Source: Candidatus Enterousia sp.
Lineage (GTDB): Bacteria > Pseudomonadota > Alphaproteobacteria > Rs-D84
Length of the DNA: 64,000 bases
Reading direction: 5' to 3'
Assembly: GCA_045546075.1 (NCBI GenBank)
Contig: JAZQCF010000017.1
Span: 10,254-74,253 of the forward strand
The first letter of the stretch is position 1, and every line of letters begins with the position of its first letter. Under the pieces are notes generated by a model, which saw only the letters and a list, made by a program, of their open reading frames with translations, was not told where the DNA came from and did not search any database. A program made the translations under genes and the position numbers. Positions 2,074-61,486 of this stretch are shown here, piece after piece.

Positions 2074-5000
2074 ATGATAAAAAAACTGGCCCCCATTATA
2101 TATTGCTTGACACCGTTGTGTGCACTGGCAGACGTGATTACCGAGACCGGGACCCCCGGTGTTCCCACACCGTTTTCCGGTAATTTAACCGTTACAACCG
2201 ATTCGTATCGATTCGTATATGGGTCGGGGATAAACGTAACGGGGGGAATAAATACCGCCGGTGGATTCTATATTGGGCAAGATGCGGGTGCAAATCCAAA
2301 CGTTGGTGCGATTTATGCCGAAACGACAATCAATCCAAATTATGTGGTGACGGCGGCCGATGCGATTACGATTGGCGGGCCGTTACAGGTTAAATCTGGG
2401 TATAACCTGACCATTGGGGGGGCGGGTTCTGCGGTGGATTTGACCGTGGGTAAGGTTGATATTTATGGCGACTTGACGGTTTCAAATGTGGGGGCGGTGT
2501 CGTTTGCTGAATTTACTTCAACGAATGCGGATGCGACAATAAATGGAACATCGTTAACAATAGGAAACGGTAAATTTCAGGCATTGGGGGCCGGGGATAC
2601 AACCGTGAATATTGGAACGGGTGCGTTTAATGTTGCAAACGGCGCGATTGAAAACAAATCGTCGGGCGATATGACAATTACCGCCGGTGCGATTACCGCG
2701 CAAACCATCACGAACGAGGCAAATGAACCCAACAGTCCGGTTGGTGATTTGACGATAAATGCGGCATCTTTGACATTGACCGGCGGGGATGCAACGACAA
2801 ATGCGTCTTTTGTGAACAAGGGTAATTTTACCGGTGTCATTACCGGCGCGACAAATTTGGCGCACGGGTTTGATTTGGGTTCCATGGGCGCAACAAACAA
2901 ATTTAATTTAACAACGGGAACTTTGGTGTTGGGTGACCGTATCGCAGAATTCTATACAAATAATTTGAATTCGTTTGTGTTAAACGTAACCGGTGGCGGA
3001 ATTGATGCCGGGGCAAATGCGATTCGTAATGGAACAACAAATGACAATGCCGGTATGACATTGACCGCCCAGACTGTTGCGGCGGCGGGTATTGAAAATT
3101 TGGCGACGTTGAATATCACATCAAACGGTGCCGTTAATATGACGGGTGATGTGGTGAATTCGGGTGCGTTGGATGTTTCGGGAACTGTGTTTACGTTGGC
3201 AAACATAAATAATTCTGGGGCGGCGACGCTTTCGGGGTCGGGCGCGTTTGGTGCCAATGCAATCAGTAATTTGGCGGGCGCAGAATCTTTGACCGTTTCG
3301 GGAACCGGGGTTACCGCATCGGGTTTGATTTCAAACAATGCCGGAACAATGACGGTCCAGGCGACAAATGGTAATGTTGGCGCATTGGGATTGGTGGCAA
3401 ATGCCGGAACAATGAATGTTTCCGGTGAAACATTGAATATTGGCACATCCGGTATCGATGTCGGCGCAAATGGTTCTTTGAATACAACGGGTGATATTAT
3501 TTCAGGGGGCGAGATATCAGTTGCAAATAACCTGACGGCGGGAAGTGGTGCGGCCGCGGCGGGTGATATGGCCGTGTCTGGCGGTGTTGTCGATATAACC
3601 GTGAACAATAATGAAAAATTGTCCGTTGGTGGCAATGTTACCGCAACCGGGGGTGGCGTTGGAATGAACATAGACGCGCACACAATGGAAATTAACGGCG
3701 GTGTTTCGGCGACCGATTCGGGTAAATTGGCCTTTGGTGTGTCGGGCGGTTCAAATTATGCACTTTCGGTTGAAAATAATTTGTCGGCAACAAATGGCGG
3801 TGAAGTTTATTTATATACCAACAACGCGAGAGTATCCCAGGCAATTACAGAAAATTCCGGTTTGATTTATACAACCGATACAAATATAACCGCGGGTTCG
3901 GTTGTGGTTCAGGGTGGACTGTATTTTGATGGCGCATCGCATACAAACGGTTTTGTCGTCGATTCAGGTAATGCGTTCACGCTGAATGCGGCCCAGTTTA
4001 CATTTAACGGTGGTGGAAATGTTGCAGTCGACAATACATTAAACGTATTGCGTTTTGGCGATGCCCAGAGTTTTGTAAATATGTCGGGGACGTTTACAAA
4101 TGCCGGAACCGTTAACGTTGGCGCAAATGACAGAAGGTTTGGTTCGGTTGGACTTGGAACATTGACCAACAATGGGACGTTTAATGTTTGGACGAATCTG
4201 GTTACCGGTGGAGATATCACGAACAATACAGATGGAATTTTGACCTTGAATTCCACGGGTAATGTAACATTGGCCAATTTGACAAATGATGGTTCGGCGG
4301 ATGTTTCGGGTGCGGCGGTCGCCCTGGGGACGGTTGTGGCGAATTCTGGGAATGCAACGGGCGGGGGACTGCGCGTGAACGGAACCTCTGTGATGGCGAA
4401 TTCGTTAAGCGTTCAATCGGTGGTGGGTGCATTGGATATAAATGCGCCAAGCATCAAGATTACTGGGGCGGTAGATACGAACGGCGGTGTGTTGCACCAA
4501 GGTGCCGGTTCAACCAGTGCGATAAATTTATTGGCGGCCGAATTCACGTTTAATTCTGGTGCGTGGAATATGGATTCTTTCGTTGCGGACGGCGGAATTG
4601 GAACATATAACGTGACGGGCGCAATGAATTTTGGAACAGGTGTTATTGTTGAAAATGGTGCGCGCGTGAACTTTAAGCGCGATAATATTGATGCGCCGTT
4701 ATTTTCCGTCGCGGGCAATTTGGTCCAGAATATGTCTGGCACGGACCAAGATGGCACAGTTAATATGATATCGAACAATTTCACATTACGCGCGAATAAT
4801 GTCAACGTTGGTGGTGATATAAATGTGAATAAATTTACAATCGCGAATTTGAACGCGCCAAACGGTATGAAAATTGACGTTACCGGAAATGTTTCGGGGG
4901 GGCTGGGGATTATGGGCCTGGAATATATGACGGTTGGTGAAAATTATACGTTTGATGGTAACAGCAAACTGTTGGCAATCGCAAATTCATCGTCCACGCA

Positions 5001-6642
5001 CGATTATTGGACCGATGTAGATTTTTCGGGCGCAGAACCGTTGATAAATCCGTTGACCGGTGGCGAGACCGCGTTGATAAGCGTTAATGGTAAAATAATA
5101 AATAACGCAGCCGGATTAGATATGGGCAACACGCCGACAGATTTGGCGAATTCTCAGTTTGGTATCGTATTGACCCAGGCGGTAACGGAATCCAGTGCGT
5201 TATGGTTGGCGCACGCGGAGGCGGGGATTGAAGGGTTGCGTTTCAATCAATTAAGTGTCGGTTTCTGTAATGCCGATGGAACGCATTGTGTAAATTACTT
5301 GGATGCATTTAATACTAATAATGGTGCGGGTGAAAACCTGCCGGTGTATTTGGTAACGGTTGATAACGATTTGTATGTCGTGTTTGATACGCGCTTTGGT
5401 GAACCGATTGGTTTGTTCAAATTACAGCCGGTTGTTGGCGCAACGCCGGGACACACGTTGGGTGAATGGCAATCGGCCGGCGCGTTGGACGATGTGATTG
5501 AGGCCGCATTGGCGAATCTGGGGTACACTTACGAAACGGCGGTTTTGCCGGTGGTGGCAACTTTGTTTAACGGAACGCCATTGGAACGCGTGGACAGCGA
5601 ACTGTATGCGCGTATGTTTGATTATTCCCAGACCGGAAATGGAAAGGTGATTCGCGCCTTCAGCCGTCTGTTCCAGTTGCGCGAAGCGAACCAGATTGCG
5701 GACAGTTTGGCCCTGAACACACATACAAATTTCCGTGATATGGCCGATAGATTTATTGACGAGGCAATTTGGAATCGTAATCGTCGTTTGAATAAACTTT
5801 GGATTGATGGTTCGTATGGTATGTTCACGAACGATTTTGATGATATTCGTGGTGATGGTGACCGTTTCAGCCTTAGTTTCGGTTATGATTGGCAGGCGAA
5901 CAATACCCTGATTTTGGGTTGGATGGTGCATGGGTCATATACGGATGCGAACGTTGTTGATGATATAGATTTGGGTTATGGTAATACGGGACGTATTGCG
6001 GGCCGTATGGAATCGAATATGACAAATTTGTCGGTTGGCGGTGGACTTTATTTCTTGAACACACTGTCGAACAAGATGCGCCTGTATGGGGACGCGATGA
6101 TTGATGTGAATATGATTGATGTCGAACGCAACCAGACATGGGTTGATACGATTAAGGGTGATGCAACATCGTTCGGTGCCGTTGCCGAATTGGGGTTGAT
6201 ACACGATTGGCTGAATCAGTATATTATTGGTAATCTGTATGTGCGTGGTGGATATAACTTTGGTTTTGATATGACCGAAAAGGTTGGGGATGCGGATTAT
6301 ATGAAATTGGAATTTGATGGGTACCCAATTTTGACACCGGGTTATTCGTTGATGGTACAAAAACGTGTATATCCGTCTGCGTGGTTTGAATTCCGCCCGT
6401 ATGCAACGGTTGGTATAGAATATGATTTGTTGGGTTCGCCGGATACGATGCAATATAAATTCGCAATGGCGAATAAATGGACCGATTATAATATAGATGT
6501 TGATGCACTGTGGGCAAATGCGGGTGCGGGTGTGGAATTCCTGTGGGTGAACGGGTTACACATTGGTGCGGGTTATCGGTACCAATATAATGCCGATGTC
6601 CAGATGCACAAAATCCACGCGTCTGTGAAATACCGGTTTTAA
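2074..6642 (+). CDS. autotransporter outer-membrane protein (large beta-helical passenger plus C-terminal beta-barrel)
   Basis: 1522-aa ORF. It has a signal peptide (MIKKLAPIIYCLTPLCALA), a long Gly/Asn/Thr/Ala-rich repetitive passenger, and a C-terminal barrel-like region ending in the aromatic ...SVKYRF. Confidence 0.85.
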   Translation: MIKKLAPIIYCLTPLCALADVITETGTPGVPTPFSGNLTVTTDSYRFVYGSGINVTGGINTAGGFYIGQDAGANPNVGAIYAETTINPNYVVTAADAITIGGPLQVKSGYNLTIGGAGSAVDLTVGKVDIYGDLTVSNVGAVSFAEFTSTNADATINGTSLTIGNGKFQALGAGDTTVNIGTGAFNVANGAIENKSSGDMTITAGAITAQTITNEANEPNSPVGDLTINAASLTLTGGDATTNASFVNKGNFTGVITGATNLAHGFDLGSMGATNKFNLTTGTLVLGDRIAEFYTNNLNSFVLNVTGGGIDAGANAIRNGTTNDNAGMTLTAQTVAAAGIENLATLNITSNGAVNMTGDVVNSGALDVSGTVFTLANINNSGAATLSGSGAFGANAISNLAGAESLTVSGTGVTASGLISNNAGTMTVQATNGNVGALGLVANAGTMNVSGETLNIGTSGIDVGANGSLNTTGDIISGGEISVANNLTAGSGAAAAGDMAVSGGVVDITVNNNEKLSVGGNVTATGGGVGMNIDAHTMEINGGVSATDSGKLAFGVSGGSNYALSVENNLSATNGGEVYLYTNNARVSQAITENSGLIYTTDTNITAGSVVVQGGLYFDGASHTNGFVVDSGNAFTLNAAQFTFNGGGNVAVDNTLNVLRFGDAQSFVNMSGTFTNAGTVNVGANDRRFGSVGLGTLTNNGTFNVWTNLVTGGDITNNTDGILTLNSTGNVTLANLTNDGSADVSGAAVALGTVVANSGNATGGGLRVNGTSVMANSLSVQSVVGALDINAPSIKITGAVDTNGGVLHQGAGSTSAINLLAAEFTFNSGAWNMDSFVADGGIGTYNVTGAMNFGTGVIVENGARVNFKRDNIDAPLFSVAGNLVQNMSGTDQDGTVNMISNNFTLRANNVNVGGDINVNKFTIANLNAPNGMKIDVTGNVSGGLGIMGLEYMTVGENYTFDGNSKLLAIANSSSTHDYWTDVDFSGAEPLINPLTGGETALISVNGKIINNAAGLDMGNTPTDLANSQFGIVLTQAVTESSALWLAHAEAGIEGLRFNQLSVGFCNADGTHCVNYLDAFNTNNGAGENLPVYLVTVDNDLYVVFDTRFGEPIGLFKLQPVVGATPGHTLGEWQSAGALDDVIEAALANLGYTYETAVLPVVATLFNGTPLERVDSELYARMFDYSQTGNGKVIRAFSRLFQLREANQIADSLALNTHTNFRDMADRFIDEAIWNRNRRLNKLWIDGSYGMFTNDFDDIRGDGDRFSLSFGYDWQANNTLILGWMVHGSYTDANVVDDIDLGYGNTGRIAGRMESNMTNLSVGGGLYFLNTLSNKMRLYGDAMIDVNMIDVERNQTWVDTIKGDATSFGAVAELGLIHDWLNQYIIGNLYVRGGYNFGFDMTEKVGDADYMKLEFDGYPILTPGYSLMVQKRVYPSAWFEFRPYATVGIEYDLLGSPDTMQYKFAMANKWTDYNIDVDALWANAGAGVEFLWVNGLHIGAGYRYQYNADVQMHKIHASVKYRF

Positions 6643-6663
6643 TTAGTGATTAGTGATGAGTAA
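6643..6663 (+). repeat. TTAGTGR heptamer array (3 units) directly after the autotransporter stop codon
   Basis: TAA(6640-6642)|TTAGTGA TTAGTGA TGAGTAA. Confidence 0.85.
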
Positions 6664-6664
6664 A

Positions 6665-6690
6665 AACCCGCGGGAAACCGCGGTTTTTTA
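6665..6690 (+). terminator. Rho-independent terminator
   Basis: Hairpin CCCGCGG-GAAA-CCGCGG (6667-6683) flanked by an A-run and TTTTTT; potentially bidirectional. Confidence 0.75.
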
Positions 6691-7196: not shown

Positions 7197-8855
7197 TTAT
7201 TCCAATGTGCCCAGGTGATATGCGGCCCCGCCGGACATAATGTTCATTGAATTCGCGCCGCCATCGCCCAATTCCATTGGCGTATAGCATACCGTTCCAT
7301 TGTGTTTAATATGCAATGCCGGCGTGGTTGGACTGGTGTCAAACAGCGGAAATTCCAACCCAGTGGATGTTTTGATTTTTGTAATCCCCGCACCACAGTC
7401 TTGATAACAAACATCGTTATATATGTGTTCGGTTGGATTTGCCTGGCATACGGCCCGATTATCAACCAGGCTTTCCCCCCAACCGGTTTCGGCGGACATG
7501 CTTCCGCACGGACATTCAGTATATAAATTTGTTTCTTCAAACATAAAGTCAGTGCCATATTCGCCGGGCGATGTTATATTTTCAAAAATGTTTTTTGGTA
7601 CATACCCCGATAGGTTTGAACAACCATAAAACGTCTCCGCGAACATCGCAAATGCACCTTCACCCGATAAATTACCAAATAAATTTTCAGGTATTGAACC
7701 AGTTATACCGCTTAATGCGAAAGTGCCGTTAAACATGTTTTCTGCCGGTGCACCGGAAATCCCACTGAATAAGTTTCCTGGGATTGAGCCGTTCAGTCCA
7801 CTGCAGCCTGAAAAAGTTTCGCTAAACATGTTTTCTGCCGGTGCACCGGAAATCCCGCCGAATAAGTTTCCTGGGATTGAGCCGGTTATACCGGTTGCTG
7901 CGAAAGTGCTTCTAAACATGCCTTTTGCCGGTGCACCGTAAATCCCACTGAATAAGTTTTCCGAAATTGAACCGGTTATACCGGTGTAGGTGAATGTCCT
8001 TGCAAACATAGATTCTGCCGGTGCGCCGGAAATTCCACTGAACAACCCCTCTGGAATTGAACCGGTTAATCCGCTACAATAGTCAAATGTACTTGCAAAC
8101 ATAGATTTTGCCGGTGCGCCGGAAATTCCACTGAACAACCCCTCTGGAATTGAACCGCTTAAGTAACGGCATCCTGAGAATGTACTTGCAAACATAGATT
8201 CTGCCGGTGCACCAGAAATTCCGCTGAACAATCCATCCGGAATTGAACCGTATAGCAGACTATCAGCGAATGTACGGTAAAACATGTTACTAACGGGGGC
8301 ACCAACTATACCAGTAAAAAGTTCCTCAGGAATTGTGAAATCTATGTTCCAATCCCCACAACCCTCAAAAGTAGATATAAAACGTGGTTGTGAAGTCCCT
8401 ATTGTTGGAAATATCGCGCCCAGCGAACCGGATATTGCCTCAATAACATTTGGATTTTCATTAAATCGTATGGTCGAAACATTGGTTGTATTGTATCCCG
8501 TTGCCATTCCGCCAAAGCGAATTTGATCATATACATCATACTGGTATGTGCATGTATATGTTGCTTCAGTTGTATCGGTACGGGTGATGGTTTTTCCGGA
8601 TACGCCGGTGCCGGACAGTGTGCCGCCATCGCCACAATCAACATAAAAAGTTCCCTGGGCGGATATATTGAAATTGAAAACAAATGGGTCGTAATAAAGC
8701 ATAAACCGAATCGCGAACTTCGCCGTTTCGCATTGGGTGCCGTCGCCCAAAACGTCTATTTCGTTTTCGGCACATGCCGCGCGTGCAACCGTTGGCATCA
8801 TATACATTATGCCCATGATAATTGTGATGATGATTGTTTTTAATGGCTTTAACAT
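7197..8855 (-). CDS. secreted protein with about eight 30-aa tandem repeats (LRR-like) and a Cys-rich C-terminal domain
   Basis: Signal peptide MLKPLKTIIITIIMGIMYMMPTVARA; repeats of the form GSIPxxLFSGISGAPAxxMFxxTF(SGC). Start set at the ATG 9 nt after GGGGGG; the ATG at 8864 and the ORF-track start at 8915 are alternatives. The LRR assignment is only pattern-based. Confidence 0.7.
   Translation of the reverse strand: MLKPLKTIIITIIMGIMYMMPTVARAACAENEIDVLGDGTQCETAKFAIRFMLYYDPFVFNFNISAQGTFYVDCGDGGTLSGTGVSGKTITRTDTTEATYTCTYQYDVYDQIRFGGMATGYNTTNVSTIRFNENPNVIEAISGSLGAIFPTIGTSQPRFISTFEGCGDWNIDFTIPEELFTGIVGAPVSNMFYRTFADSLLYGSIPDGLFSGISGAPAESMFASTFSGCRYLSGSIPEGLFSGISGAPAKSMFASTFDYCSGLTGSIPEGLFSGISGAPAESMFARTFTYTGITGSISENLFSGIYGAPAKGMFRSTFAATGITGSIPGNLFGGISGAPAENMFSETFSGCSGLNGSIPGNLFSGISGAPAENMFNGTFALSGITGSIPENLFGNLSGEGAFAMFAETFYGCSNLSGYVPKNIFENITSPGEYGTDFMFEETNLYTECPCGSMSAETGWGESLVDNRAVCQANPTEHIYNDVCYQDCGAGITKIKTSTGLEFPLFDTSPTTPALHIKHNGTVCYTPMELGDGGANSMNIMSGGAAYHLGTLE
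7650..8335 (-). repeat. about 90-bp tandem coding repeats (some units near-identical)
   Basis: The AAACATG/AAACATA landmark recurs at 7731, 7824, 7914, 8004, 8097, 8190 and 8280. Units 8003-8065, 8095-8160 and 8185-8250 are almost identical, as are 7732-7795 and 7822-7885. Confidence 0.85.
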
Positions 8856-9134
8856 TTGGCGCATCCCCCCGTTTGGTTCACGGTTTATGTGCGCACAAAA
8901 AAAATTGGACGGCACATCAACCGGTCCAATGGCGTTTTCCCCAAATAAAAAGCCTTGGAATTAAATTCTTGTGTTTGCTTGGTTCAAAATCTGGTTAGAT
9001 TATATCAAAAATGTGAATTTATGGCAAGGGGAAAATCTTGCCACAGACATCCACACCCCGTCGGGTTACACCCGCCACCCCTCTCTAGAGGGGAACTTTT
9101 TGTCTCGCGCAGGCGCGCGAACATAAAATTAACT

Positions 9135-9902: not shown

Positions 9903-11171
<1,269 letters not shown>

Positions 11172-18304: not shown

Positions 18305-19369
18305 ATGGTAATAGAAGATAAACTTTTGGACATTAAAAAACGCGCAAGTGATATCCAGGCGGCCATGAATTCGGGCGATGTGTCGGGCGATGAATTGACG
18401 AAATTATCGCGCGAATATGCACGGTTGAATGATATTTTGCCCCTTGTGGACGAATATTTTCAAACAAAGCAGGGCATAGACGATGCGACCGAGATGCTGC
18501 ACGATGAAGAATTGCGCGAAATCGCCAATGAACAATTGGAAGATTTGAAACATCGTATGCCTGATATAGAAAAACGGTTACAGATTGCCTTGCTGCCGCG
18601 GGACGATGCGGACGACCACAGTGCGATTATGGAAATTCGCGCCGGGGTGGGGGGCGAAGAATCCGCGCTGTTTGCGGGGGATTTGTTCAATCAATATAAA
18701 TCCTATGCGTTGCGGCACGGGTGGAAAATTGAAATTGTGGAAGAAAACGCAACATCGCTGCATGGGTATAAAGAAATTATTTTCAAAATCGATGGCGATG
18801 GGGTGTTCGCGCGCATGAAATTTGAATCGGGCATTCATCGGGTGCAACGCGTCCCGGAAACCGAGGCCGGCGGTCGTATTCACACCAGTGCGGTTTCCGT
18901 TGCCGTCATGCCCGAGGCGCAAGATATCGATGTCAAAATCGAAGAAAAAGATATTCGTATCGATGTTTTTCGGGCGTCCGGTGCGGGTGGTCAACACGTC
19001 AATAAAACCGATAGTGCGGTGCGCATTACCCACTTTCCAACGGGCATCGTTGTTACGTGTCAGAACGAACGCAGCCAGATTCAAAACAAGGCGACCGCCA
19101 TGGCGGTATTGCGTTCAAAACTGTATGAAAAAGAGCGTATGGAACAAGATGCCGCGCGCACCAGTTCGCGCCGCAGTATGGTTGGTTCGGGCGACCGCAG
19201 TGAAAAGATTCGCACATATAATTTCCCGGAACAGCGCGTGACCGATCATCGTATTAAATTGACGCTTTATAAACTGGATGATATTTTGGCGGGCGGCGAA
19301 GGATTGGATGAAATGATAGACGCATTGATTTCTGCGGACCAGTTGGAACGCCTGGCCGCGATGGAATAG
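18305..19369 (+). CDS. prfA: peptide chain release factor 1
   Basis: GGQ motif (SGAGGQHVNKTDSAVRITH) and a PxT-type anticodon mimic (RVPETE). 354 aa. Confidence 0.93.
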   Translation: MVIEDKLLDIKKRASDIQAAMNSGDVSGDELTKLSREYARLNDILPLVDEYFQTKQGIDDATEMLHDEELREIANEQLEDLKHRMPDIEKRLQIALLPRDDADDHSAIMEIRAGVGGEESALFAGDLFNQYKSYALRHGWKIEIVEENATSLHGYKEIIFKIDGDGVFARMKFESGIHRVQRVPETEAGGRIHTSAVSVAVMPEAQDIDVKIEEKDIRIDVFRASGAGGQHVNKTDSAVRITHFPTGIVVTCQNERSQIQNKATAMAVLRSKLYEKERMEQDAARTSSRRSMVGSGDRSEKIRTYNFPEQRVTDHRIKLTLYKLDDILAGGEGLDEMIDALISADQLERLAAME

Positions 19370-19426
19370 GGGACGGTTAGTGATTGTTCCGTCTAGGCTT
19401 ACGCTCCGTCGCGACAAGGGTTTAGT

Positions 19427-19452
19427 AAAAAACGCCCAATCGGGCGTTTTTT
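19427..19452. terminator. bidirectional Rho-independent terminator
   Basis: AAAAAA-CGCCC-AATC-GGGCG-TTTTTT between prfA (+) and the convergent 19451-19963 gene (-). Confidence 0.75.
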
Positions 19453-19963
19453 AATCCGGCAAATTCCACAGCAGGCAATTTTCGCTGGTTTCTGCCGCGC
19501 CATCCAGGTATCGAACACAGATTTTGTTTTTTTGCTTTGCGCTTATGCGGCTGTTCGAAAGTTTAAATGCCCGGTCAAGAACTTCAGCCGATACGATACT
19601 GTTTTTTATATCACTTTCGCCAAGTCCATGGAACAGTTCTGCATCATCGGCCATTTGTTGGACCATATACCCATCGGCCAATTTGGTCCCCCAAGCCTCA
19701 CTGGTGGGTCCAGTCCAACCATTGGTGCCGCCTTGGATAATATAACGTTTTGCAATAACGCCGTCTGTGTCTGTATCTGTAATGACGGCGGTAGGCATTG
19801 ACAGGTTAAATTGTCCGCCTGTGCCTCTTGGTGATATTTTGTCTTGTTTTGTTTCAACCCGGGTATCAACATAGTTTTGTGTGGTGATGGTCTGTGTATC
19901 TGCCAAAACTGAATTGATTGTGATTATTGATGCGATTGCACCAAGTAATAATTTTTTGCTCAT
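19451..19963 (-). CDS. small secreted protein, paralog family member (170 aa)
   Basis: ORF trimmed to MSKKLLLGAIASIITINSVLADT after AGAGGGAAAATATG. It shares the signal peptide, NYVDT and ENCLLWNL motifs with 23878-24381. Confidence 0.75.
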   Translation of the reverse strand: MSKKLLLGAIASIITINSVLADTQTITTQNYVDTRVETKQDKISPRGTGGQFNLSMPTAVITDTDTDGVIAKRYIIQGGTNGWTGPTSEAWGTKLADGYMVQQMADDAELFHGLGESDIKNSIVSAEVLDRAFKLSNSRISAKQKNKICVRYLDGAAETSENCLLWNLPD

Positions 19964-25641: not shown

Positions 25642-25809
25642 TTTTGTTTTACCTTTGTTTGTTATTAAAAGTTCGCCCTATTATGTCGCAACCGCGCAGA
25701 AAAGTCAAGAAAAATCGATATGGTATTATGATACCGTAAAAAACAAAAAACTTGATAATGGCGGTTATCTTTGATAACCTTTGGTTTGTTCGTATTATGG
25801 AGTATCAAA

Positions 25810-28212
25810 ATGGCAACGGATGATATAAAAAAGATTATTGCGCGTGAAGAAAAATGGCAGCGGCGTTGGCGCGATGCGCGTGCGTTTGTGCCGAAAAACG
25901 ATGGGTCAAAACCGCGTTTCTATAATTTGGTAGAATTTCCGTTCTTGTCCGGTGCCGGATTGCATGCGGGTCATATGATGAACTATACCGGGATGGATGT
26001 TTTGGCGCGCTATCGCCGGCATCGTGGTTATGACGTGTTGTTTCCAATGGGTTTTGATGCGATGGGGATTGCAGGTGAACATTATGCCAAGAAAATCGGT
26101 CGGCACCCGGCGGATGTTGCGCGCGATTTGGTAAAATCTTATTCAACAATGATAGACCGTGTCGGTTGGTCGGTTGACCCGGAAACACGCGTTGCGACAT
26201 CTGATCCAGAATATATCAAATGGACCCAGTGGATGTTTATTCAGTTTTTCAAGGCGGGTTTGGCATATAAATCTGAATTGCCGATGAATTGGTGTCCAGA
26301 ATGCCGAACAACATATACCAACGAAGAATTGGAAGACAACAAATGTCCACGTTGCCACAGTATCATAGAAAAAAAGACTAAAATGCAATGGAATCTGCGC
26401 CTGTCGCGGTATGCGGATAAATTGCTGGATGGGTTAAAGGATGTGGATTTTGATGAACGGATTAAAAAAGATGAAATAAACCTGATTGGAAAATCGCACG
26501 GCGCGGATGTAGATTTTCGTGTCGGCGACGATATTATGACGGTCTATACCACGCGCGTGGATACCATATTTGGTGTGACGTTTTGTGTTATTGCGCCGGA
26601 ACATAAACTGTTACAGAAATGGTTGGATACGGGCCGCATAAAAAATGCGGATGCTGTGCGGGCATACATTAAACAATCGGCGGCAAAAACAGAAATAGAA
26701 CGCACGGACGCAACCAAGGAAAAAACAGGAATAAAACTGGATGGCGTAATGGCGATAAATCCGTTCAACGGACGTGAAATTCCAATCTTTACGTCTGATT
26801 ATGTGTTGGTGGATTATGCGTATGGGACAATTATGGCGGTGCCGGCACACGATTCGCGCGATTGGGATTTTGCGAAAAAATTCGGTCTTGAAATAATTCC
26901 GGTTTTGGCCGGTGGCGAACCAGACGCGGTCTGGGAAGGTGATGGGCCGCATATAAATTCGCAATTTTTGGATGGGATGGATAAAGAAACCGCGATTGCA
27001 ACCGCAATAAAATACGGAACCGAACACGGTTTCGCACGCGGAACAACAAAATATAAATTAAAGGATTGGGGTTTCTCGCGCCAGATGTATTGGGGCGAAC
27101 CAATTCCAATGGTTTACTGTGAAAAATGCGGGTGGCAACCAATTCCCGAAGACGAATTGCCGCTGATGCAACCATATATGGAAGACTATAGCCCAACCGA
27201 TATGGGCGAAAGTCCATTGGCGCGTGCGACCGATTGGGTTAAAACGACCTGCCCTTGCTGTGGCGCGCCGGCACAACGTGAAACCGATACTATGCCGGGA
27301 TGGGCGGGTTCTTCGTGGTATTATTTGCGCTATTTGGACCCGAAAAACGACAAAGAGTTTTGTAGCAAAGAACAGATGAAAAATTGGATGCCGGTGACGC
27401 ACTATAACGGCGGACACGAACACAATACGCGGCATTTGATTTATTCCCGGTTTTGGCATCACGCACTGTATGATTTGGGTTTGGTAAATACCCCGGAACC
27501 ATATACCAAGCGGACCGCCCAAGGGTTGCTTATGGGGAATGATGGATATAAAATGTCTAAATCACGCGGAAATGGTTTTATGGTTGCCGATTTAATGGAT
27601 GCGGTTGGTGCCGATGTGGGGCGTGTTGCAGTGTTGTCGTTGGGACCGTGGGAAAACAATGTTGTTTGGACCGATGGTGCGATGGCGGGGGTTCAGCGTT
27701 TCCTGAAACGCGTAGAAAATTTGTCTGATAATTTAACCGATGATGCATTAACACCCGAACAAGATATTTTGGTAAATCGTTTAATTGCCGATGTGACAGA
27801 ACGTTTGGATGGTATGAAATTTAATACGGCGATTTCCGCGATGATGGAATTTATAAATGAATTTCCGGGTGGAAAAATGCCGCGCCGTGCGTACGAGGTT
27901 TTGATTCAAATGCTGAACCCGTTTGCGCCGCATTTGACCGAAGAAATGTGGGAAAAGTTGGGGCATGCGGATATGTTGGTGTTTGAACCGTGGCCGACAT
28001 TCGATGCGTCTAAATTGGTTGAAACAACCGCAACATTTGCGGTGACGGTCAATGGTAAGCGCGTTGCCGAATTTGTCGCGGATTTGAACGCGAACAATGA
28101 AGAATTGATTGCGTTGGCCCGTGCGGCGGCGGGTGCCCGGATTGCCGGCACAGAAATCATTAAAACCATTGTCGTGCCAAAGAAATTGGTGAATTTTGTT
28201 GTAAAGAAATAG
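25810..28212 (+). CDS. leuS: leucine--tRNA ligase
   Basis: ORF trimmed to MATDDIKK after GGAG. Class I motifs are HAGH (HIGH-type) and KMSKS (YKMSKSRGN), with a CP1 editing domain. About 800 aa. Confidence 0.93.
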   Translation: MATDDIKKIIAREEKWQRRWRDARAFVPKNDGSKPRFYNLVEFPFLSGAGLHAGHMMNYTGMDVLARYRRHRGYDVLFPMGFDAMGIAGEHYAKKIGRHPADVARDLVKSYSTMIDRVGWSVDPETRVATSDPEYIKWTQWMFIQFFKAGLAYKSELPMNWCPECRTTYTNEELEDNKCPRCHSIIEKKTKMQWNLRLSRYADKLLDGLKDVDFDERIKKDEINLIGKSHGADVDFRVGDDIMTVYTTRVDTIFGVTFCVIAPEHKLLQKWLDTGRIKNADAVRAYIKQSAAKTEIERTDATKEKTGIKLDGVMAINPFNGREIPIFTSDYVLVDYAYGTIMAVPAHDSRDWDFAKKFGLEIIPVLAGGEPDAVWEGDGPHINSQFLDGMDKETAIATAIKYGTEHGFARGTTKYKLKDWGFSRQMYWGEPIPMVYCEKCGWQPIPEDELPLMQPYMEDYSPTDMGESPLARATDWVKTTCPCCGAPAQRETDTMPGWAGSSWYYLRYLDPKNDKEFCSKEQMKNWMPVTHYNGGHEHNTRHLIYSRFWHHALYDLGLVNTPEPYTKRTAQGLLMGNDGYKMSKSRGNGFMVADLMDAVGADVGRVAVLSLGPWENNVVWTDGAMAGVQRFLKRVENLSDNLTDDALTPEQDILVNRLIADVTERLDGMKFNTAISAMMEFINEFPGGKMPRRAYEVLIQMLNPFAPHLTEEMWEKLGHADMLVFEPWPTFDASKLVETTATFAVTVNGKRVAEFVADLNANNEELIALARAAAGARIAGTEIIKTIVVPKKLVNFVVKK

Positions 28213-28237
28213 TGGTTAGTGATTAGTGGTTAGTAAA
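28210..28237 (+). repeat. TAGTGRT heptamer array (4 units) starting with the leuS stop codon
   Basis: TAGTGGT TAGTGAT TAGTGGT TAGTAAA; the first TAG is the leuS stop. Confidence 0.85.
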
Positions 28238-28240
28238 CAA

Positions 28241-28300
28241 CCGCCCGGATGTCACCCGCAAAATTTTTTGATTTTGTGGGACCAGACTTTGGGCGTTTTT
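28241..28300 (+). terminator. compound hairpin element plus T-run (member of a repeated hairpin family)
   Basis: CCGCCCGGATGTCACCCGCAAAATTTTTTGATTTTGTGGGACCAGACTTTGGGCG followed by TTTTT. Close copy at 29479-29532; the inner hairpin is also at 6925-6958. Confidence 0.6.
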
Positions 28301-28318
28301 ATTTTTTTGACAGCATTG

Positions 28319-34478: not shown

Positions 34479-35279
34479 ATGACAAATATACATCCAACCG
34501 CAATTATTCGCGAAGGCGCCGTTATTGGTGCAGACTGTAAAATTGGTCCATATTGTATCGTGGGCCCTAATGTTGTTTTGGGGGAACGTGTAGAATTGGT
34601 GTCGCACGTTGTTATTGATGGCAAAACATCCATTGGCGATGATTCTATTGTGTATCCATTTGCCGTTCTGGGCGTGATGAGCCAGGATTTGAAATGGCAA
34701 GACGAATCCACTATGACCGGACTGCGCATTGGAAAACGTTGTCGTATTCGTGAATATGTAACAATTCATTCGGGAACACCCGCATCGGATGGAACGGTGA
34801 TTGGTGACGATTGCCAGATTATGGTGAACGCCCACGTGGGGCACGATTGCAAGATTGGAAACAGCGTGGTTATGTCTAACCTGGTCCAGGTTGCCGGTCA
34901 TGTAGAGATTGAAGACTTTGCGATTTTGTCGGGTGATGTTATGGTTTTACAATTTGCACGTATTGGACGTAATGCGTTTGTTGGTGGAATGTCGGGTGTG
35001 GGTAATGACATTTTACCGTACGCGATATATGATGGTGCACGTGCAACATATCGAACGATAAATCGTGTTGGTTTGATGCGACACGGTTTCACCAACGAAG
35101 ATATGCACGCGATTCATTCGGTATATAATGCGGTGTTTCGTGAAACGGGCGGAACGGTGGCGGAACGCCTGGCCCGCATCCGGCGCGAGGTTAAAAATAA
35201 TAAATATGCAATGGATGCGATAGACTTTATTGAAAACCGTTCAAAGCGCGGCATTGGGACATCGGGTAATGCGGAATAA
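34479..35279 (+). CDS. lpxA: acyl-ACP--UDP-N-acetylglucosamine O-acyltransferase
   Basis: Hexapeptide-repeat left-handed beta-helix (IHPTAIIREGAVIGADCKIGPYCIVGPNVVLG...) plus the LpxA C-terminal helical domain. Followed by lpxB. Confidence 0.92.
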   Translation: MTNIHPTAIIREGAVIGADCKIGPYCIVGPNVVLGERVELVSHVVIDGKTSIGDDSIVYPFAVLGVMSQDLKWQDESTMTGLRIGKRCRIREYVTIHSGTPASDGTVIGDDCQIMVNAHVGHDCKIGNSVVMSNLVQVAGHVEIEDFAILSGDVMVLQFARIGRNAFVGGMSGVGNDILPYAIYDGARATYRTINRVGLMRHGFTNEDMHAIHSVYNAVFRETGGTVAERLARIRREVKNNKYAMDAIDFIENRSKRGIGTSGNAE

Positions 35280-36405
35280 AAAAATCAAGATTTTCATTAT
35301 TGCAGGCGAGGTTTCCGGTGATGCGCTTGCGTCGCGCGTGATGCAGCGGATGCCGAACGCGGAATTTGTTGGCATTGGCGGGGCCGCCATGACGAAATGC
35401 GGATTAAAGTCTTTATTTCCAATGGCCGATTTGTCGGTTATGGGCATTACCGAGGTTTTATCCCATGCCCGCACACTGTCGCGGCGCATACGTCAAACGG
35501 TTAATGCGATTATTGATGCGCGCCCCGATTTGGTTTTGACGGTTGATTCGCCGGGCTTTGCGCGTTCGGTAATCAAGAAACTGCGTGCGTCAAATACGGG
35601 CAAAAAAATGATTGCGGCGGGATTGCGCTTTCATCACATTGTTGCGCCCCAGGTTTGGGCGTGGCGACCGGGTCGTGCCAAGAAATATGCGCGCACGTTT
35701 GATAAACTGTATGCGTTTTTTGATTTCGAAGTGCCCTATTTCACCAAATATGGTTTGGACACCATTGCCGTTGGACACCCGATTGCCGAAAATATTATGG
35801 ATTTACCACCGGCCCCCAAGCCGAAGGACAAGATTATAACCCTGGTCCCCGGCAGTCGTATAAGCGAAGTTAAAAAATTACTGCCCGTGTTTCGGCGTTT
35901 TGTTGGAACAATAAATTCGTGTGGATATATGGGGTATAAATTTGCGATACCAACCGTTGAAACAACCGATGAATATATCCGCCGGGAAATCCAGGATTGG
36001 GCGGTAAAACCGGAACTGGTTGCCGCGGATGCGCGATATGAATTATATCAAAAAACCTATGTTGCCGTGGTGGCAAGTGGCACCGTGTCGGCGGAATTGG
36101 CGATGATGCATATTCCGGCGATTGTTGCGTATAAGATGAATCGAATTACAACACTGATTGGACATTTATTAATAAATGTTAAATGGGTATCGTTGGTAAA
36201 TATTTTATTAAATCGCACGGTTTATCCCGAATTTTTGGGTGCGGATGCGACCGCCGAAAATATTATAAATGAATTTGATTCAATAATTTTGCCGGCAAAT
36301 CGTAACAAGATGATTGCGGAATTGCACGCGGCGGACAATATGTGGGTTCGCCCGACCGGTGTGGCCAGTCAAATTATCGCAGATGATATATTAAAAAGTG
36401 TTTAG
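35269..36405 (+). CDS. lpxB: lipid-A-disaccharide synthase
   Basis: ORF trimmed to MRNKKIKIFIIAGEVSGDALAS..., the canonical LpxB N-terminus. Its ATG overlaps the lpxA stop region (ATGCGGAATAA). Confidence 0.9.
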   Translation: MRNKKIKIFIIAGEVSGDALASRVMQRMPNAEFVGIGGAAMTKCGLKSLFPMADLSVMGITEVLSHARTLSRRIRQTVNAIIDARPDLVLTVDSPGFARSVIKKLRASNTGKKMIAAGLRFHHIVAPQVWAWRPGRAKKYARTFDKLYAFFDFEVPYFTKYGLDTIAVGHPIAENIMDLPPAPKPKDKIITLVPGSRISEVKKLLPVFRRFVGTINSCGYMGYKFAIPTVETTDEYIRREIQDWAVKPELVAADARYELYQKTYVAVVASGTVSAELAMMHIPAIVAYKMNRITTLIGHLLINVKWVSLVNILLNRTVYPEFLGADATAENIINEFDSIILPANRNKMIAELHAADNMWVRPTGVASQIIADDILKSV

Positions 36406-36483
36406 TGGTTAGTCCGTCACGACCGCGGCGCGGCGTGCCGCGACGGGTGTTAGTGGTAGTGGTTAGTGTTTAGTGGCTAGTAA
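36403..36483 (+). repeat. TAGTGRT heptamer arrays (2 + 5 units) starting with the lpxB stop codon, interrupted by a GC-rich hairpin
   Basis: TAGTGGT TAGTCCG - CCGTCACGACCGCGGCGCGGCGTGCCGCGACGG - TTAGTGG TAGTGG TTAGTGT TTAGTGG CTAGTAA. Confidence 0.85.
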
Positions 36484-36509
36484 AACGCGGGGCAACACCC
36501 CGTGTTTTT
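36482..36509. terminator. bidirectional Rho-independent terminator
   Basis: AAAA-CGCGGGG-CAACA-CCCCGTG-TTTTT between lpxB (+) and the convergent 892-aa gene (-). Confidence 0.7.
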
Positions 36510-39881: not shown

Positions 39882-39968
39882 GGGGATATGGCGGAATGGT
39901 AGACGCTGAGGACTTAAAATCCTTTGGTCATTGCGACCGTGTGGGTTCAAGTCCCACTATCCCCACCA
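39882..39968 (+). tRNA. tRNA-Leu (anticodon UAA)
   Basis: GGGGATATGGCGGAATGGTAGAC...; anticodon loop CTTAAAA; long variable arm; T-loop TTCAAGT; encoded CCA. Confidence 0.88.
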
Positions 39969-40027
39969 CACTTCGCCAAGGCTTCGTGCGGCAGGCAACA
40001 CTTCGCCAAGGCTTCGTGCGGCAGGCC
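39969..40027 (+). repeat. two tandem 30-nt units (CACTTCGCCAAGGCTTCGTGCGGCAGGCAA) abutting the CCA end of tRNA-Leu(UAA)
   Basis: Unit 1 spans 39969-39998 and unit 2 spans 39999-40027. The same unit follows tRNA-Val and the tRNA-Pro 3' fragment at 49808. Confidence 0.85.
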
Positions 40028-49127: not shown

Positions 49128-49152
49128 AATTTTGTATCAAAAGGAGTCATAT

Positions 49153-49428
49153 ATGAAAAAATCACGTCTTTTATTGGTTGCTGGCGCGGTTGCAGTGTTT
49201 TTATCGGCGGGTTCTGCATTTGCGGCACCGGTGCATGGTGGACATCATTCTGTGCCCCATCACACGGTAACCTATGTCCAAAGTTCGGCGCATCATCATC
49301 CGCGACCGGGGCATCATCATGGCGGTGGGCATCATAATGTTGCGCATCACCACCATCATCATCACCATAACAATACCGCGGGCAATATTATTTTGGCCAC
49401 GGCATTATTGGTGTCTGCATTTATGTAA
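49153..49428 (+). CDS. secreted His-rich protein with a C-terminal hydrophobic tail (91 aa)
   Basis: ORF trimmed to MKKSRLLLVAGAVAVFLSAGSAFA after AAGGAG. The mature part is about 40% His, including HHHHHHHH, and ends with GNIILATALLVSAFM. Confidence 0.7.
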   Translation: MKKSRLLLVAGAVAVFLSAGSAFAAPVHGGHHSVPHHTVTYVQSSAHHHPRPGHHHGGGHHNVAHHHHHHHHNNTAGNIILATALLVSAFM

Positions 49429-49430
49429 GA

Positions 49431-49457
49431 GAGTGGTTAGTATTAGTGATTAGTTGG
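49431..49457 (+). repeat. TAGTGRT heptamer array (about 4 units) 2 nt after the stop codon
   Basis: GAGTGGT TAGTAT TAGTGAT TAGTTGG, followed by the hairpin GGGCGCATCC...GGATGCGCCC and a T-run. Confidence 0.8.
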
Positions 49458-49566
49458 TGCGGGCGCATCCGTCTTCGCTATCGCTTCGTCGCGATTGGAT
49501 GCGCCCGTGTTTTATAAAAAAACATTTGTGTTTTTTGTATTGTTGGGTTAGTATAATGTTCGTTGT

Positions 49567-52361: not shown

Positions 52362-52420
52362 CCCCTCGCCCTGGAATCCCTGTTATGCCCTATTCTATCA
52401 AATTTTGAATTTTGGTGCAA

Positions 52421-52538
52421 GTGGATAGTTGCTAGTGGTTAGTGGGTAGTATTAGTGATTAGTAGATACTGGAACTGGTTCGTAATTATGAATTTATTCC
52501 AGAGCCTACTAACCACTATCCACTAACACTAACCACTA
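52421..52538 (-). repeat. about 118-bp palindromic 3' element: inverted TAGTGRT heptamer arrays around a conserved 36-nt core
   Basis: The left arm spans 52421-52465 (…TAGTGGT TAGTGGG TAGTAT TAGTGAT TAGTAG). The core CTGGAACTGGTTCGTAATTATGAATTTATTCCAG spans 52470-52503. The right arm spans 52506-52538 (CTACTA ACCACTA TCCACTA ACACTA ACCACTA). The element begins 2 nt after the argS stop, in the sense orientation for argS. Confidence 0.8.
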
Positions 52539-52540
52539 TT

Positions 52541-54253
52541 TTACATTTCTTTTGGAATTTTTAATCCCATTAAATCCACCGTCCGGGTTAAAACACGTGT
52601 GGCAATTTGGACCAGGTTTATACGCATTGCACGTATATCCGTCGGCACATCTTCGCGCAGAATTGGACAGTTATGATAGAATGTATTTATCAACTGGCAC
52701 AAATCATAGGCATAGTTCGCAACCAAATCTGTGGCGCGCGATTCAAATGCCGATTGCACCGTGCGGTCAAAGTCTAACAATTCCATAATTAAATTGCGTT
52801 CGTCGGGATTCATTTCAACCGCGTTTTGTGATTTACCAAACTCGCCCGCGCGCCGCAAAACAGAATTTAATCGAACCGCCGTGTACAAGACATATGGTCC
52901 GGTGCGCCCTTCGAACGAAGTGATTTGCGCCGGGTCAAAAATATAATCTGCACGGACATCGTGTAATAAATCATTAAACTTTACCGCCGCCAATGCAATC
53001 ATTTGGATTGTGTCTGTATCCAATTTTTTGCCGGTTTCCGCAATACGCGCCATAACCGCATCGTTTGCAGAATCCAATATGTCGTCCAATCCCGCCGCGT
53101 TACCATCGCGGGTCTTGAACGGTTTACCATCTTCCCCGTTGATTGTTCCGTAACCAATATGTTCAAATTTATCGTATGGATATATGCCGGACATATCGGC
53201 AACACGGAACAGTTGTTCAAAGTGCAGGCTCTGGCGCAGGTCTGTTATATAAATAATCCTGTCGGGGTTATCTGTTTGTTTGCGACAATAAACGGCCGCC
53301 AAATCCGTAGAATCGTATGTGTCGGCACCACGGGAATCACGCCACATATATGGTGGCATCGGTTTGTTGTCGTCTTCGCGTTTAACGTTTATGATTTCTG
53401 CGCCGTCATTTTTATAAATCATATTTTTTTCGCGCAATATTTTTTCAACAGGTTCCAAATACTGCGCGGCGTTTCTTTCGCCCAAATCATAATCAAACGG
53501 CAAAATATTCAAACGTTGCACGGTGTTGTTCATTGTGCGCAACGATATTGCCAAAAACTTTTCATACAGCGCAAAATACCCCGGATGCCCCGATTGGAAT
53601 TTTGCCTTGATTTCCTGGGCATGCAGTTGGAATTCAGGGTCTGTTTTGGCCAATGCCGATGCCGCCGGATAATATGTATTTAATTCGTTGGCATCAATTT
53701 CATAATCAACGGGCGCATCGGGGTTAAAATCGTCCCGGAAATATGGCAATTCTGGGTGAAGGCGTTCAATCCACGCAATTACCAATCCCATCGGTTTGCC
53801 CCAATCGCCAATATGATTCCAAGAAAAAGTCTTGTGGCCCACGGACCGCGCAACACGGTTAAATGTGTCGCCGACAATAGATGTCCGTAAATGCCCGATA
53901 TGTAAAGATTTGGCAACATTGTATGCACCATAGTCCATATCTATAACCAACGGATTTGTGGTTTGGGTTATTTCATCGGCACTTTGAACGGCGTGCCATA
54001 AAAAATCGTCTTTGATTTTCAAATTGATAAATCCTGGCCCCGCCACCGATGCGGATTCAACAAAATCTAATTCCGTGATTTTTGGTAAAATCTCGTTCGC
54101 CAATTCACGTGGATTTTTACCGGCACTGCGTGCCATAACCATTGCGGCGTTGGTTGAAAAATCGCCAAATTCACGGTTGCGCGGGGTTTCCAATTTTGCA
54201 TCAAAACCCAATTTTTCATTTAATTTTGCAGATACATATTTGTAAAGGTTCAT
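52541..54253 (-). CDS. argS: arginine--tRNA ligase
   Basis: 570 aa; HIGH-type motif (SLHIGHLR), an ArgRS N-terminal Add-1 domain and a DALR anticodon-binding C-terminus ending ...PKEM. Confidence 0.93.
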   Translation of the reverse strand: MNLYKYVSAKLNEKLGFDAKLETPRNREFGDFSTNAAMVMARSAGKNPRELANEILPKITELDFVESASVAGPGFINLKIKDDFLWHAVQSADEITQTTNPLVIDMDYGAYNVAKSLHIGHLRTSIVGDTFNRVARSVGHKTFSWNHIGDWGKPMGLVIAWIERLHPELPYFRDDFNPDAPVDYEIDANELNTYYPAASALAKTDPEFQLHAQEIKAKFQSGHPGYFALYEKFLAISLRTMNNTVQRLNILPFDYDLGERNAAQYLEPVEKILREKNMIYKNDGAEIINVKREDDNKPMPPYMWRDSRGADTYDSTDLAAVYCRKQTDNPDRIIYITDLRQSLHFEQLFRVADMSGIYPYDKFEHIGYGTINGEDGKPFKTRDGNAAGLDDILDSANDAVMARIAETGKKLDTDTIQMIALAAVKFNDLLHDVRADYIFDPAQITSFEGRTGPYVLYTAVRLNSVLRRAGEFGKSQNAVEMNPDERNLIMELLDFDRTVQSAFESRATDLVANYAYDLCQLINTFYHNCPILREDVPTDIRAMRINLVQIATRVLTRTVDLMGLKIPKEM

Positions 54254-61003: not shown

Positions 61004-61119
61004 GGTATTAGTGATTAGTGGATAGTGTTAGTGGTTAGTAGAATCTGGCATAATTTCATAATAACGAACTTATTCCAGGAACCATTAATTAGCCACTGTC
61101 CACTTGCAATAATCACTAA
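61001..61119 (+). repeat. about 119-bp palindromic 3' element (second copy), starting with the stop codon of the TolA-like gene
   Basis: The left arm is TAGGGTAT TAGTGAT TAGTGGA TAGTGT TAGTGGT TAGTAG (61001-61041). The core CTGGCATAATTTCATAATAACGAACTTATTCCAG follows. The degenerate inverted arm spans 61082-61119. The core has the same orientation relative to the upstream gene as at argS. Confidence 0.8.
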
Positions 61120-61140
61120 AAACGCCCCCTTGCGGGGGCG
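61116..61140 (-). terminator. Rho-independent terminator of rnpB
   Basis: CGCCCCC-GCAA-GGGGGCG on the minus strand, followed by TTTTT. Confidence 0.8.
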
Positions 61141-61486
61141 AATTGCCGTACAGTTGGACGATAAGCCGGATTCTGTCCCGCCCAGGCCCCGTGTCGTTCC
61201 GGCGCGTTCGACACCAAACATTGGGTGGTGGACATAATTAATCTGCACATTGTGTTACCACCATGTGTCAAGCCCTCTACCCGCCTCCGATTCGGGACAA
61301 ATCATAGAGGCCTATTTGAAGTTGCTGCACACAGAGATTGCCCGTTTCACTCAGGTCGAACCTGCTTCGTCACTGTTGCTCTAATCGTCGGGTTGCCCCG
61401 CCCGGCCGTTAACCGGTGTGCTGTCCCGCGCAGTCCGGACTTTCCTCCGCCACAAATGTAACGGCTATGTCCTGTCCAACTGTTGC
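61141..61486 (-). ncRNA. rnpB: RNase P RNA (bacterial type A)
   Basis: The minus strand carries the universally conserved GGCGGAGGAAAGTCCGGAC (reverse complement of about 61431-61450) and ACAGAATCCGGCTTATCG (reverse complement of 61159-61176). P1 pairs ACAGTTGG at the 5' end with CCAACTGT at the 3' end. It has its own promoter and terminator. Ends are uncertain by about 5 nt. Confidence 0.9.

Follow-up and report, generated by a model that had tools for sequence, protein, structure and literature searches.

We describe here tandem arrays of the heptanucleotide TAGTGRT (R is A or G) in a 64,000 nt stretch of DNA from Candidatus Enterousia sp. (contig JAZQCF010000017.1, positions 10,254 to 74,253), the whole of which we refer to as the window. 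The arrays are found at the 3' ends of genes, in the orientation of the gene that they follow, and we consider it reasonably likely that they are lineage-specific, slippage-prone repeats lodged in the gap between stop codon and terminator, of the same class as the intergenic heptamers GGGAATC, GGGGAYT and TAACTGA. TAGTGRT is a new unit of this known class, for which the literature gives no established function, and is not a demonstrated device for stopping translation in all frames. At two genes, argS and the open reading frame (ORF) ORF252, the arrays are the arms of a palindromic element that resembles a miniature inverted-repeat transposable element (MITE) or a doublet of repetitive extragenic palindromes (REP; the doublet, REPIN) and that is found at three gene ends.

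Arrays in the window and their anatomy

A census of TAGT repeated at 6–8 nt spacing on both strands of the window yields seven chains on the + strand (starting at 6644, 28210, 36403, 36451, 49438, 52426 and 61009) and one on the - strand (52505–52538), and Tandem Repeats Finder recovers the same heptamer arrays. Two hundred first-order Markov shuffles of the window, which has a G+C content of 45%, gave a mean of 0.55 chains of at least two units and none of at least three, and the exact two-unit pattern, with three matches in the window, was absent from the shuffles. Head-to-tail 7-nt units beyond chance, all of them outside the chosen ORFs, are what characterises the non-coding intergenic heptanucleotide repeats of bacteria, known as short tandemly repeated repetitive sequences (STRR) or long simple sequence repeats (LSSR). 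The chains largely reproduce the arrays listed in an initial annotation of the sequence, although the array at 6643 has only two exact units rather than three to six, and the run at 52421–52465 is no independent sense array, the + strand from 52421 to 52466 being the complementary hairpin arm of the argS element.

Every sense array in the window begins between -3 and +9 nt from a stop codon. The direct contact with stop codons that had been claimed is seen at leuS and lpxB, where the TAG stop is the first unit, and at ORF 2074–6642, where TAA runs into TTAGTGA; at ORF252 the array begins 5 nt after the TAG. The argS array is, as annotated, in sense orientation, with TAA on the - strand followed by AA and then the array, and the single unit noted after prfA is present and accompanied by a further one (Table 1). 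Searches of Pfam and NCBIfam gave no match that would confirm the labels ‘autotransporter’ for ORF 2074–6642 and ‘TolA-like’ for ORF252, although ORF252 does follow ExbB/ExbD. TAG is the stop codon of four of the seven genes with arrays and of five of the 40 other genes in the window (p=0.018).

The arrays occur in two forms. Solo arrays are present at ORF 2074–6642, prfA (as single units), leuS, lpxB and a small histidine-rich (His-rich) ORF, and within 0–6 nt give way to an A-tract and a strong hairpin terminator that has a U tract; their last unit is typically TAGTAAA(A), which merges into the A-tract of the terminator. In centroid folds they remain unpaired, so that the arrays are not themselves Rho-independent terminators, with a GC-rich hairpin and a U tract; the true terminators lie downstream. 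The long forms, at argS and ORF252, carry an inverted partner and are described below. Downstream of each sense array in the window there is thus either a terminator hairpin or a hairpin formed with the array's own complement.

We also note a GC-rich module, TCCGTCT..GCT..CGCT.CGTCGCGA, about 32 nt long and present twice in the window (19388–19419 and 49472–49503), one copy splitting the prfA 3' units and the other forming the loop of the terminator of the His-rich ORF. The GC hairpin that splits the lpxB array (36414–36446) is related to it, similar modules occur in the 3' regions of relatives (argS in L121, ORF252 in L211, and leuS in L149 and L161, where L numbers designate loci), and the module may represent a second family of small nested repeats.

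Variation among relatives

The window argS protein is 75–85% identical to those of metagenome-assembled genomes labelled Alphaproteobacteria and up to 99% identical to metagenome proteins, and GcrA is likewise encoded in the neighbourhood; look-ups for exact copies of the prfA and argS proteins returned nothing. Comparison of the surroundings of argS homologues and of leuS homologues, the latter in 80 loci (about 1 Mb), places sense arrays at eight distinct gene ends across the clade, from -10 to +16 nt from the stop. The same gene ends bear arrays in relatives with 75–86% identity, and sites are kept while copy number varies, as in the known heptamer class. The arrays of the window differ from those of L124/L125, at 99% identity, by a 7-nt indel, 1-nt changes and two units, and the His-rich ORF ends within the 99% strains either in TAA or in a TAG supplied by the array. 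The unit is variable too: L211/L212 have (TAGTGT)7 at the His-rich ORF, with a period of 6 and one frame closed, and the stop-free units TCAGTGG and TTGGTGG are found in relatives.

The distribution of the arrays is patchy. In the majority of relatives the leuS TAA is followed directly by the A-tract and hairpin, and among the relatives compared, an array between the stop and the terminator of leuS is found only in the window, L128/L129, L160/L161 and, in degenerate form, L201, which on a neighbour-joining tree are four lineages separated by array-less sisters. Even L127, a 98% relative, has leuS without an array, and single-unit remnants are present in several others. In L127 the 3' flank (2600–2700) of the 98% identical leuS gene is unrelated, with TGA and then a different terminator, and the segment from stop to terminator is thus exchanged faster than the gene. 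At L160 12404–12450 the leuS array continues directly into a Shine-Dalgarno (SD)-like GAGG and the next gene's ATG (TTAGTGAGGTAGTTATG), showing that an array can be the whole intercistronic spacer. A different unit, (TAATAGA)5–7, is repeated beside a terminator about 9.7 kb downstream of leuS in L131 (22035–22076), L135 (22093–22128) and L141 (22088–22139); these relatives have no TAGTGRT arrays, and their unit holds both TAA and TAG.

Placement and polarity outside the clade

When genomes, one per species, were scanned for three exact tandem copies of TAGTGRT, at least 120 stretches matched, where about two are expected by chance. Among the matches listed, to which all counts for genome loci of other phyla given here refer, they come from more than 15 phyla, including Cyanobacteria, Bacteroidota, Chloroflexota, Planctomycetota, Verrucomicrobiota/Lentisphaerae, Acidobacteriota, Bacillota, Actinomycetota, several proteobacterial classes and others. 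With stop and start placement scored by conservative gene calls, arrays abut a stop codon in sense orientation in 20 of 31 cases (starting from -17 to +11 nt) and in antisense orientation in two of 28 (within 12 nt; Fisher p=7e-6), and in the viral contigs of IMG/VR in 19 of 28 and five of 40 cases respectively (Fisher p=5e-6). Antisense arrays are instead often situated 0–35 nt upstream of a start codon. Where an inverted partner is present it lies downstream rather than upstream, by 23:1 in the genome loci and 24:0 in the viral contigs, and the centre between inverted arrays is not conserved in other phyla. Of the arrays in the other loci, none falls within a same-strand ORF of at least 100 aa, and a few overlap an ORF on the opposite strand. 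Both the association with gene 3' ends and the sense orientation, first proposed from the window, are therefore borne out, both at the eight gene ends of the clade and beyond it, and arrays of the same polarity are neither confined to the window nor free of bias; the placement near stops on the coding strand is also that published for other heptamers. The array-bearing loci contain 127 distinct period-7 units, period 7 being dominant, and carriers are thus heptamer-rich in general.

The abundance of TAGTGRT was compared in the viral contigs with that of six units of the same base composition, counted likewise as three tandem copies. TAGTGRT, with the maximal number of stops on both strands, makes 106 stretches; TTGAGRT, with stops on the sense strand only, makes 48; AGRTGTT and AGGTRTT, with stops on both strands, make 30 and 27; and ATTGGRT, TTGGRAT and ARTTTGG, with no stops, make 40, 17 and 14. 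Two pairs of these sets overlap (AGGTRTT with AGRTGTT, and TTGGRAT with ARTTTGG), their units coinciding at one value of R. The stop content of a unit is thus no predictor of the abundance of its arrays.

Two candidate regularities were rejected. Array orientation does not follow a replication-strand bias, the 92 single-strand loci from other genomes dividing 51:41 relative to GC skew (p=0.35); in the window the + strand has a GC skew of +0.08 and six of the seven sense arrays follow + strand genes, for which a rough within-window test gives p=0.15. Nor does a strong local hairpin always follow the arrays in other phyla, since folding of the 70 nt downstream is weaker than in controls. We also observe on an IMG/VR phage contig (L284) two intergenic cassettes, at 2960–3180 and 3900–4160, each running from a stop through (TAGTGGT)n, a conserved hairpin and (TAAYCAC)n to a Shine-Dalgarno sequence and ATG; there are 11 pattern matches within 5.7 kb.

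Proposed slippage-prone spacers and a possible RNA-level role

In the model that we favor, the arrays occupy the short untranslated stretch that separates the stop codon from a Rho-independent terminator, and would be transcribed together with the upstream gene as a C-free, G/U-rich and largely unpaired spacer of 15–40 nt in the 3' untranslated region (UTR). Their length would change in 7-nt, and sometimes 6-nt, steps through slipped-strand mispairing, and arrays would be repeatedly gained and lost at the same gene ends. Because the unit carries TAG, plus TGA if R is A, an array cannot grow into an ORF and often supplies the stop codon, and the stops in all frames would be a by-product of the unit rather than its purpose. 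Much as a REPIN or MITE spreads, the apex-bearing palindrome would have been copied to three gene ends or more, and would give the argS and ORF252 transcripts a long 3' or intercistronic hairpin; effects of the arrays on mRNA ends are conceivable.

Several observations weigh against this model. Slippage alone explains neither the sense polarity of the arrays nor their downstream-only inverted partners, and the sequence of the ORF252 array is retained in an 86% relative, which is long for a neutral repeat. In the viral contigs TAGTGRT arrays exceed the six composition-matched units by 2–7 fold, and the unit is one of two among 60 composition-matched arrangements that have maximal stop density on both strands, so some sequence-specific advantage of TAGTGRT is possible. 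The strand rule could have any of three causes: C-rich untranslated RNA, which could load Rho, may be excluded after stops; GUG-rich or SD-like arrays may be excluded before starts; or there may be a real function at the level of RNA.

One such function, which strikes us as rather unlikely, is that single-stranded (UAGUGRU)n serves as a multivalent 3' UTR site for an RNA-binding protein or nuclease, setting decay, 3'-end processing or ribosome release. Candidate partners, in part those raised in the discussion of PMC4679880, are an RNase E-type cut at the GR/UUA junction, a cold-shock protein or one with an RNA recognition motif, and pairing of GUGRU with GAUCAC in the 16S tail. The strand-specific placement suits a role of this kind, as do the unpaired state of the arrays beside the hairpin, the tolerance of either A or G opposite a U, the retention of arrays at the same gene ends across 75–86% protein identity, and the 2–7 fold enrichment over matched controls. 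However, genomes with arrays hold many unrelated heptamer units, which argues against one specific partner, arrays are missing in most close relatives, and unit number and sequence vary freely. Rfam has no match to the arrays of the window at the gathering threshold, and scanning the surroundings of the argS and leuS arrays by E-value produced nothing but chance matches to snoRNAs.

Long palindromic elements and a possible MITE origin

In the long form, one hairpin of 114–129 nt joins the sense array to a complementary array through a conserved apical stem-loop (CTGGAAT..TTCATAATTACGAAC..TTCCAG). The elements are about 109–130 nt long, the argS and ORF252 copies are 78% identical, and their ends, TAGTGGTTAGTG and CACTAACCACTA, are perfect inverted repeats of 9–12 bp, in keeping with the terminal repeats and size of a MITE. 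The argS element has a predicted fold of -54.4 kcal/mol (z = -9.9) and the ORF252 region, with its downstream terminator included, one of -58.7 (z = -6.4), or -39.9 for the element alone. The argS hairpin is followed by CAAAATTC and has no U tract. By direct reading the elements are not REP or REPIN sequences, in that their arms are heptamer arrays and there is no GTAG-headed REP unit. A third copy of the apex is present in L161, where its first TAG serves as the stop codon of ORF183, which has 183 aa, and nhmmer found no further copies in about 2 Mb of loci, giving three loci in total. Six copies keep the hairpin, and a single change among them is compensatory. Selection acting on one RNA strand of the long hairpins was considered and rejected, the fold energies of sense and antisense strands having no consistent direction and the covariation amounting to a single pair.

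Both sites vary among relatives. The apex-bearing hairpin at argS is present in 99%, 91% and 85% relatives, whereas a 94% relative has a plain terminator instead and a 90% relative has the centre replaced by a GC-rich hairpin. The window and the 99% relatives have the ORF252 element, the 90–91% relatives (L121 and L208) have an empty site, and in an 86% relative (L209) it holds a solo array of the same unit order, then a terminator. At the filled site the window has GGGTA(T TAGTGA...ATCAC TA)AAAACG, and the empty site is GGGTA/AAAAACG, with the limits of the insertion ambiguous at the TA, with which the unit itself begins.

The suggestion in the initial annotation that the arrays are terminal repeats of a small mobile element fits these two long forms, and a transposase-driven MITE origin of the long form is possible. 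The more general proposal, that a transposase-driven MITE inserting at the TA of a TAA stop or in an A-tract by terminators gave rise to all of the arrays as its ends or remnants, with solo arrays left after internal deletion, is in our view unlikely. It would account for three dispersed copies with a common apex and perfect 9–12 bp terminal inverted repeats, for an ORF252 site that is filled or empty and has TA on both sides, for solo arrays that end TAG/TAAAA plus hairpin as though inserted in TAAAA, and for inverted pairs that are always convergent. But TA is also the start of the unit, which makes the apparent duplication ambiguous, and every solo array is a sense arm, a pattern not expected from random internal deletion. 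In addition, the centre between inverted arrays is not conserved in other phyla, the apex has no more copies in the 2 Mb of loci searched, and polymorphism in unit number is typical of slippage. No transposase or REP-associated tyrosine transposase (RAYT), including the Y1 transposase, was found among the 30 window ORFs scanned.

Stop codons in all frames

It had further been claimed that the arrays put stop codons in every frame of both strands. The arithmetic holds for some of them, all six frames being closed in four of ten segments and all three sense frames in six of ten. Selection of the arrays for this property, as an all-frame stop or insulator that would free read-through or frameshifted ribosomes at the gene end on either strand and so keep translation out of the terminator and the following gene, is nevertheless very unlikely. 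The sense arrays do adjoin stops, the unit is one of the two among 60 matched arrangements richest in stops and the commonest of the seven units compared, and TAACTGA and TAATAGA arrays likewise have two stops per unit. The other two reading frames also close sooner in genes with arrays (median 23.5 nt, compared with 85 nt elsewhere; p=0.015), but this is trivially given by the sequence of the unit, and at 45% G+C other frames close by chance within tens of nucleotides. The hexamer (TAGTGT)7 of L211 stands at the same gene end, relatives have stop-free TCAGTGG and TTGGTGG units, and the majority of orthologues have no array at all. Stop-rich control units (27 and 30 stretches) are no commoner than stop-free ones (14–40), and GGGAATC, which on reading the unit has no stop codon on either strand, shares the stop-proximal placement on the coding strand (PMC4692102). 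That all-frame stopping is the purpose of the arrays is accordingly a claim that we do not uphold.

There is also a slim chance that the shared outward polarity of G/T-rich heptamers, seen in over 15 bacterial phyla as well as on phage contigs, reflects one conserved process rather than tolerated junk. Such a process could be a contact with the post-termination or initiating ribosome, GUGRU being complementary to GAUCAC of the 16S 3' tail, or a dedicated activity that adds or copies heptamers, and TAGTGRT would then be among the preferred substrates. Phase variation is unlikely, as the arrays follow the stops of housekeeping genes (leuS, argS, lpxB and prfA), and direct reading makes a G-quadruplex impossible for TAGTGAT units.

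Features of the window

The arrays, elements and genes concerned are collected in Table 1. Rho and RNase P RNA are both encoded in the window. Within an ORF on the - strand (7197–8915), tandem repeats of 90–93 nt are present at 7678–8250 in 3.5–4.3 copies with 75–82% matches; this ORF has no Pfam match, and in the relative L124 a YadA anchor is present in a 572-aa ORF. Two perfect direct copies of a 30-nt sequence (ACACTTCGCCAAGGCTTCGTGCGGCAGGCA) lie at 39968–40026, between tRNA-Leu(taa) and tRNA-Val(cac). The region from 61.6 to 64 kb has no long listed ORF because a giant gene of Flg_new repeats, 2,800–7,300 aa in relatives, passes the window end.

Table 1. Heptamer arrays, palindromic elements, terminators and associated genes, in window coordinates
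Feature	Coordinates	Strand	Remarks
ORF 2074–6642 array TTAGTGA TTAGTGA TGAGTAA	6643..6663	+	directly after TAA stop 6640–6642
Intrinsic terminator hairpin CCGCGGGAAACCGCGG, then T run	6668..6689	+	right after ORF 2074–6642 array
Rho	9903–11171		
prfA	18305–19369		
prfA 3' UTR	19377..19430	+	unit TTAGTGAT (19377–84), GC-rich 32-nt insert (19388–19419), terminal unit TTTAGTAAAA (19421)
Terminator after prfA units	19431–19455	+	
leuS	25771–28212		
leuS array TAGTGGT TAGTGAT TAGTGGT TAGTAAA	28210..28237	+	first TAG (28210–12) is the leuS stop codon
Compound terminator hairpin and U tract 3' of leuS array	28243..28307	+	array unpaired in centroid fold
lpxB	35230–36405		
lpxB array, first part, TAGTGGT TAGT	36403..36416	+	TAG 36403–05 is both lpxB stop codon and first unit
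GC-rich hairpin CCGTCACGACCGCGGCGCGGCGTGCCGCGACGG	36414..36446	+	splits lpxB array
lpxB array, second part, 5 TAGT units	36449..36486	+	ends in CTAGTAAAA; terminator then at 36484–36506
His-rich small ORF	49132–49428		
His-rich ORF array GAGTGGT TAGTAT TAGTGAT TAGTTGG	49431..49457	+	stop TAA, then GAGAGTGG TTAGTA TTAGTGA
Terminator after His-rich ORF array	49461–49506	+	
OmpA-domain ORF	49905–52361	-	
argS palindromic element	52412..52540	-	sense arm 52505–52540, apical stem-loop about 52462–52504, complementary arm 52412–52466
argS	52541–54253	-	
ORF252	60245–61003		downstream of ExbB/ExbD
ORF252 palindromic element	61007..61120	+	after TAG 61001–03; sense arm 61007–61042, apex 61043–61085, degenerate complementary arm 61086–61120
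GC-rich terminator hairpin	61123..61140	- (as listed by scan)	between ORF252 element and RNase P RNA 3' end
RNase P RNA	61146–61483	-	

Comparison with known repeat systems

Knowledge of heptamer repeats in bacteria goes back to 1990. Period 7 is reportedly the commonest class of long repeat in prokaryotes, as seen in the LSSR that Mrazek et al. (2007) described and in the STRR heptamers of cyanobacteria (summarised in PMC4679880). TAGTGRT has in common with these the 7-nt period, the intergenic position and slippage as the proposed origin; the unit differs, and the placement between stop and terminator is detailed here for TAGTGRT. A literature search for the unit in any rotation found only primer-like chance matches. 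What is new is the unit, its host group of uncultured gut or rumen Alphaproteobacteria, and the anatomy of stop codon, array and terminator, and a placement rule published for three species extends with TAGTGRT across many phyla and phage contigs. A reading in which the arrays put a stop in every frame is unnecessary for explaining that placement. Should the polarity rule stem from a mechanism, the arrays would offer simple objects with which to test it, as short inserts that can be removed or inverted between stop and terminator.

Synthetic three-frame stop cassettes of cloning vectors place stops in all frames within about 20 nt, and TAGTGRT arrays are alike in this, although selection for the property is unsupported here; to our knowledge, no natural family of all-frame stop cassettes has been defined. 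Correia elements, which are MITEs of Neisseria, and REP/REPIN doublets (cited in PMC4692102) are intergenic palindromes that the long forms resemble, being palindromes of 100–150 nt beside gene ends, in several dispersed copies and with TA at both ends, and probably co-transcribed. The long forms differ in having arms of tandem heptamers, a low observed copy number, no GTAG-headed REP motif and no RAYT or transposase among the ORFs scanned.

The TAACTGA repeats of marine Beggiatoaceae, some Cyanobacteria and Bacteroidetes described by MacGregor in 2015 lie mostly just upstream of starts (PMC4679880). In forward orientation they give stops in all frames, and hence can overlap only the ends of ORFs (PMC4679880). 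They share with TAGTGRT two stops per unit (when R is A), the intergenic position, the low copy number (2–6 per TAACTGA set) and an occasional overlap with the upstream stop, and their scattered phylogeny, which suggests horizontal spread, is also similar (PMC4679880). However, TAACTGA is placed forward a few nucleotides upstream of starts, whereas the window arrays follow stops and precede terminators, and the units differ.

The closest parallels to the placement described here are in GGGAATC of Xanthomonas and GGGGAYT of Nostoc, intergenic heptamers with no established function (Rehm et al. 2015; PMC4692102), and a preprint on Nostoc leaves the role of its heptamers open. Near stops, the G-rich strand of these repeats is on the coding strand, 0–50 nt from the stop or overlapping it, and upstream of starts it is the non-coding strand; GGGAATC forms about 70 convergent inverted pairs per Xanthomonas genome, and length varies at conserved sites (PMC4692102). 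TAGTGRT arrays are like them in being tandem heptamers that are nearly all intergenic, with convergent inverted pairs and variation in length at a kept site. They differ in having stop codons and no G runs (and hence no G-quadruplex when R is A), in their host, an uncultured gut or rumen alphaproteobacterium, and in the conserved apical stem-loop that two of the copies share.

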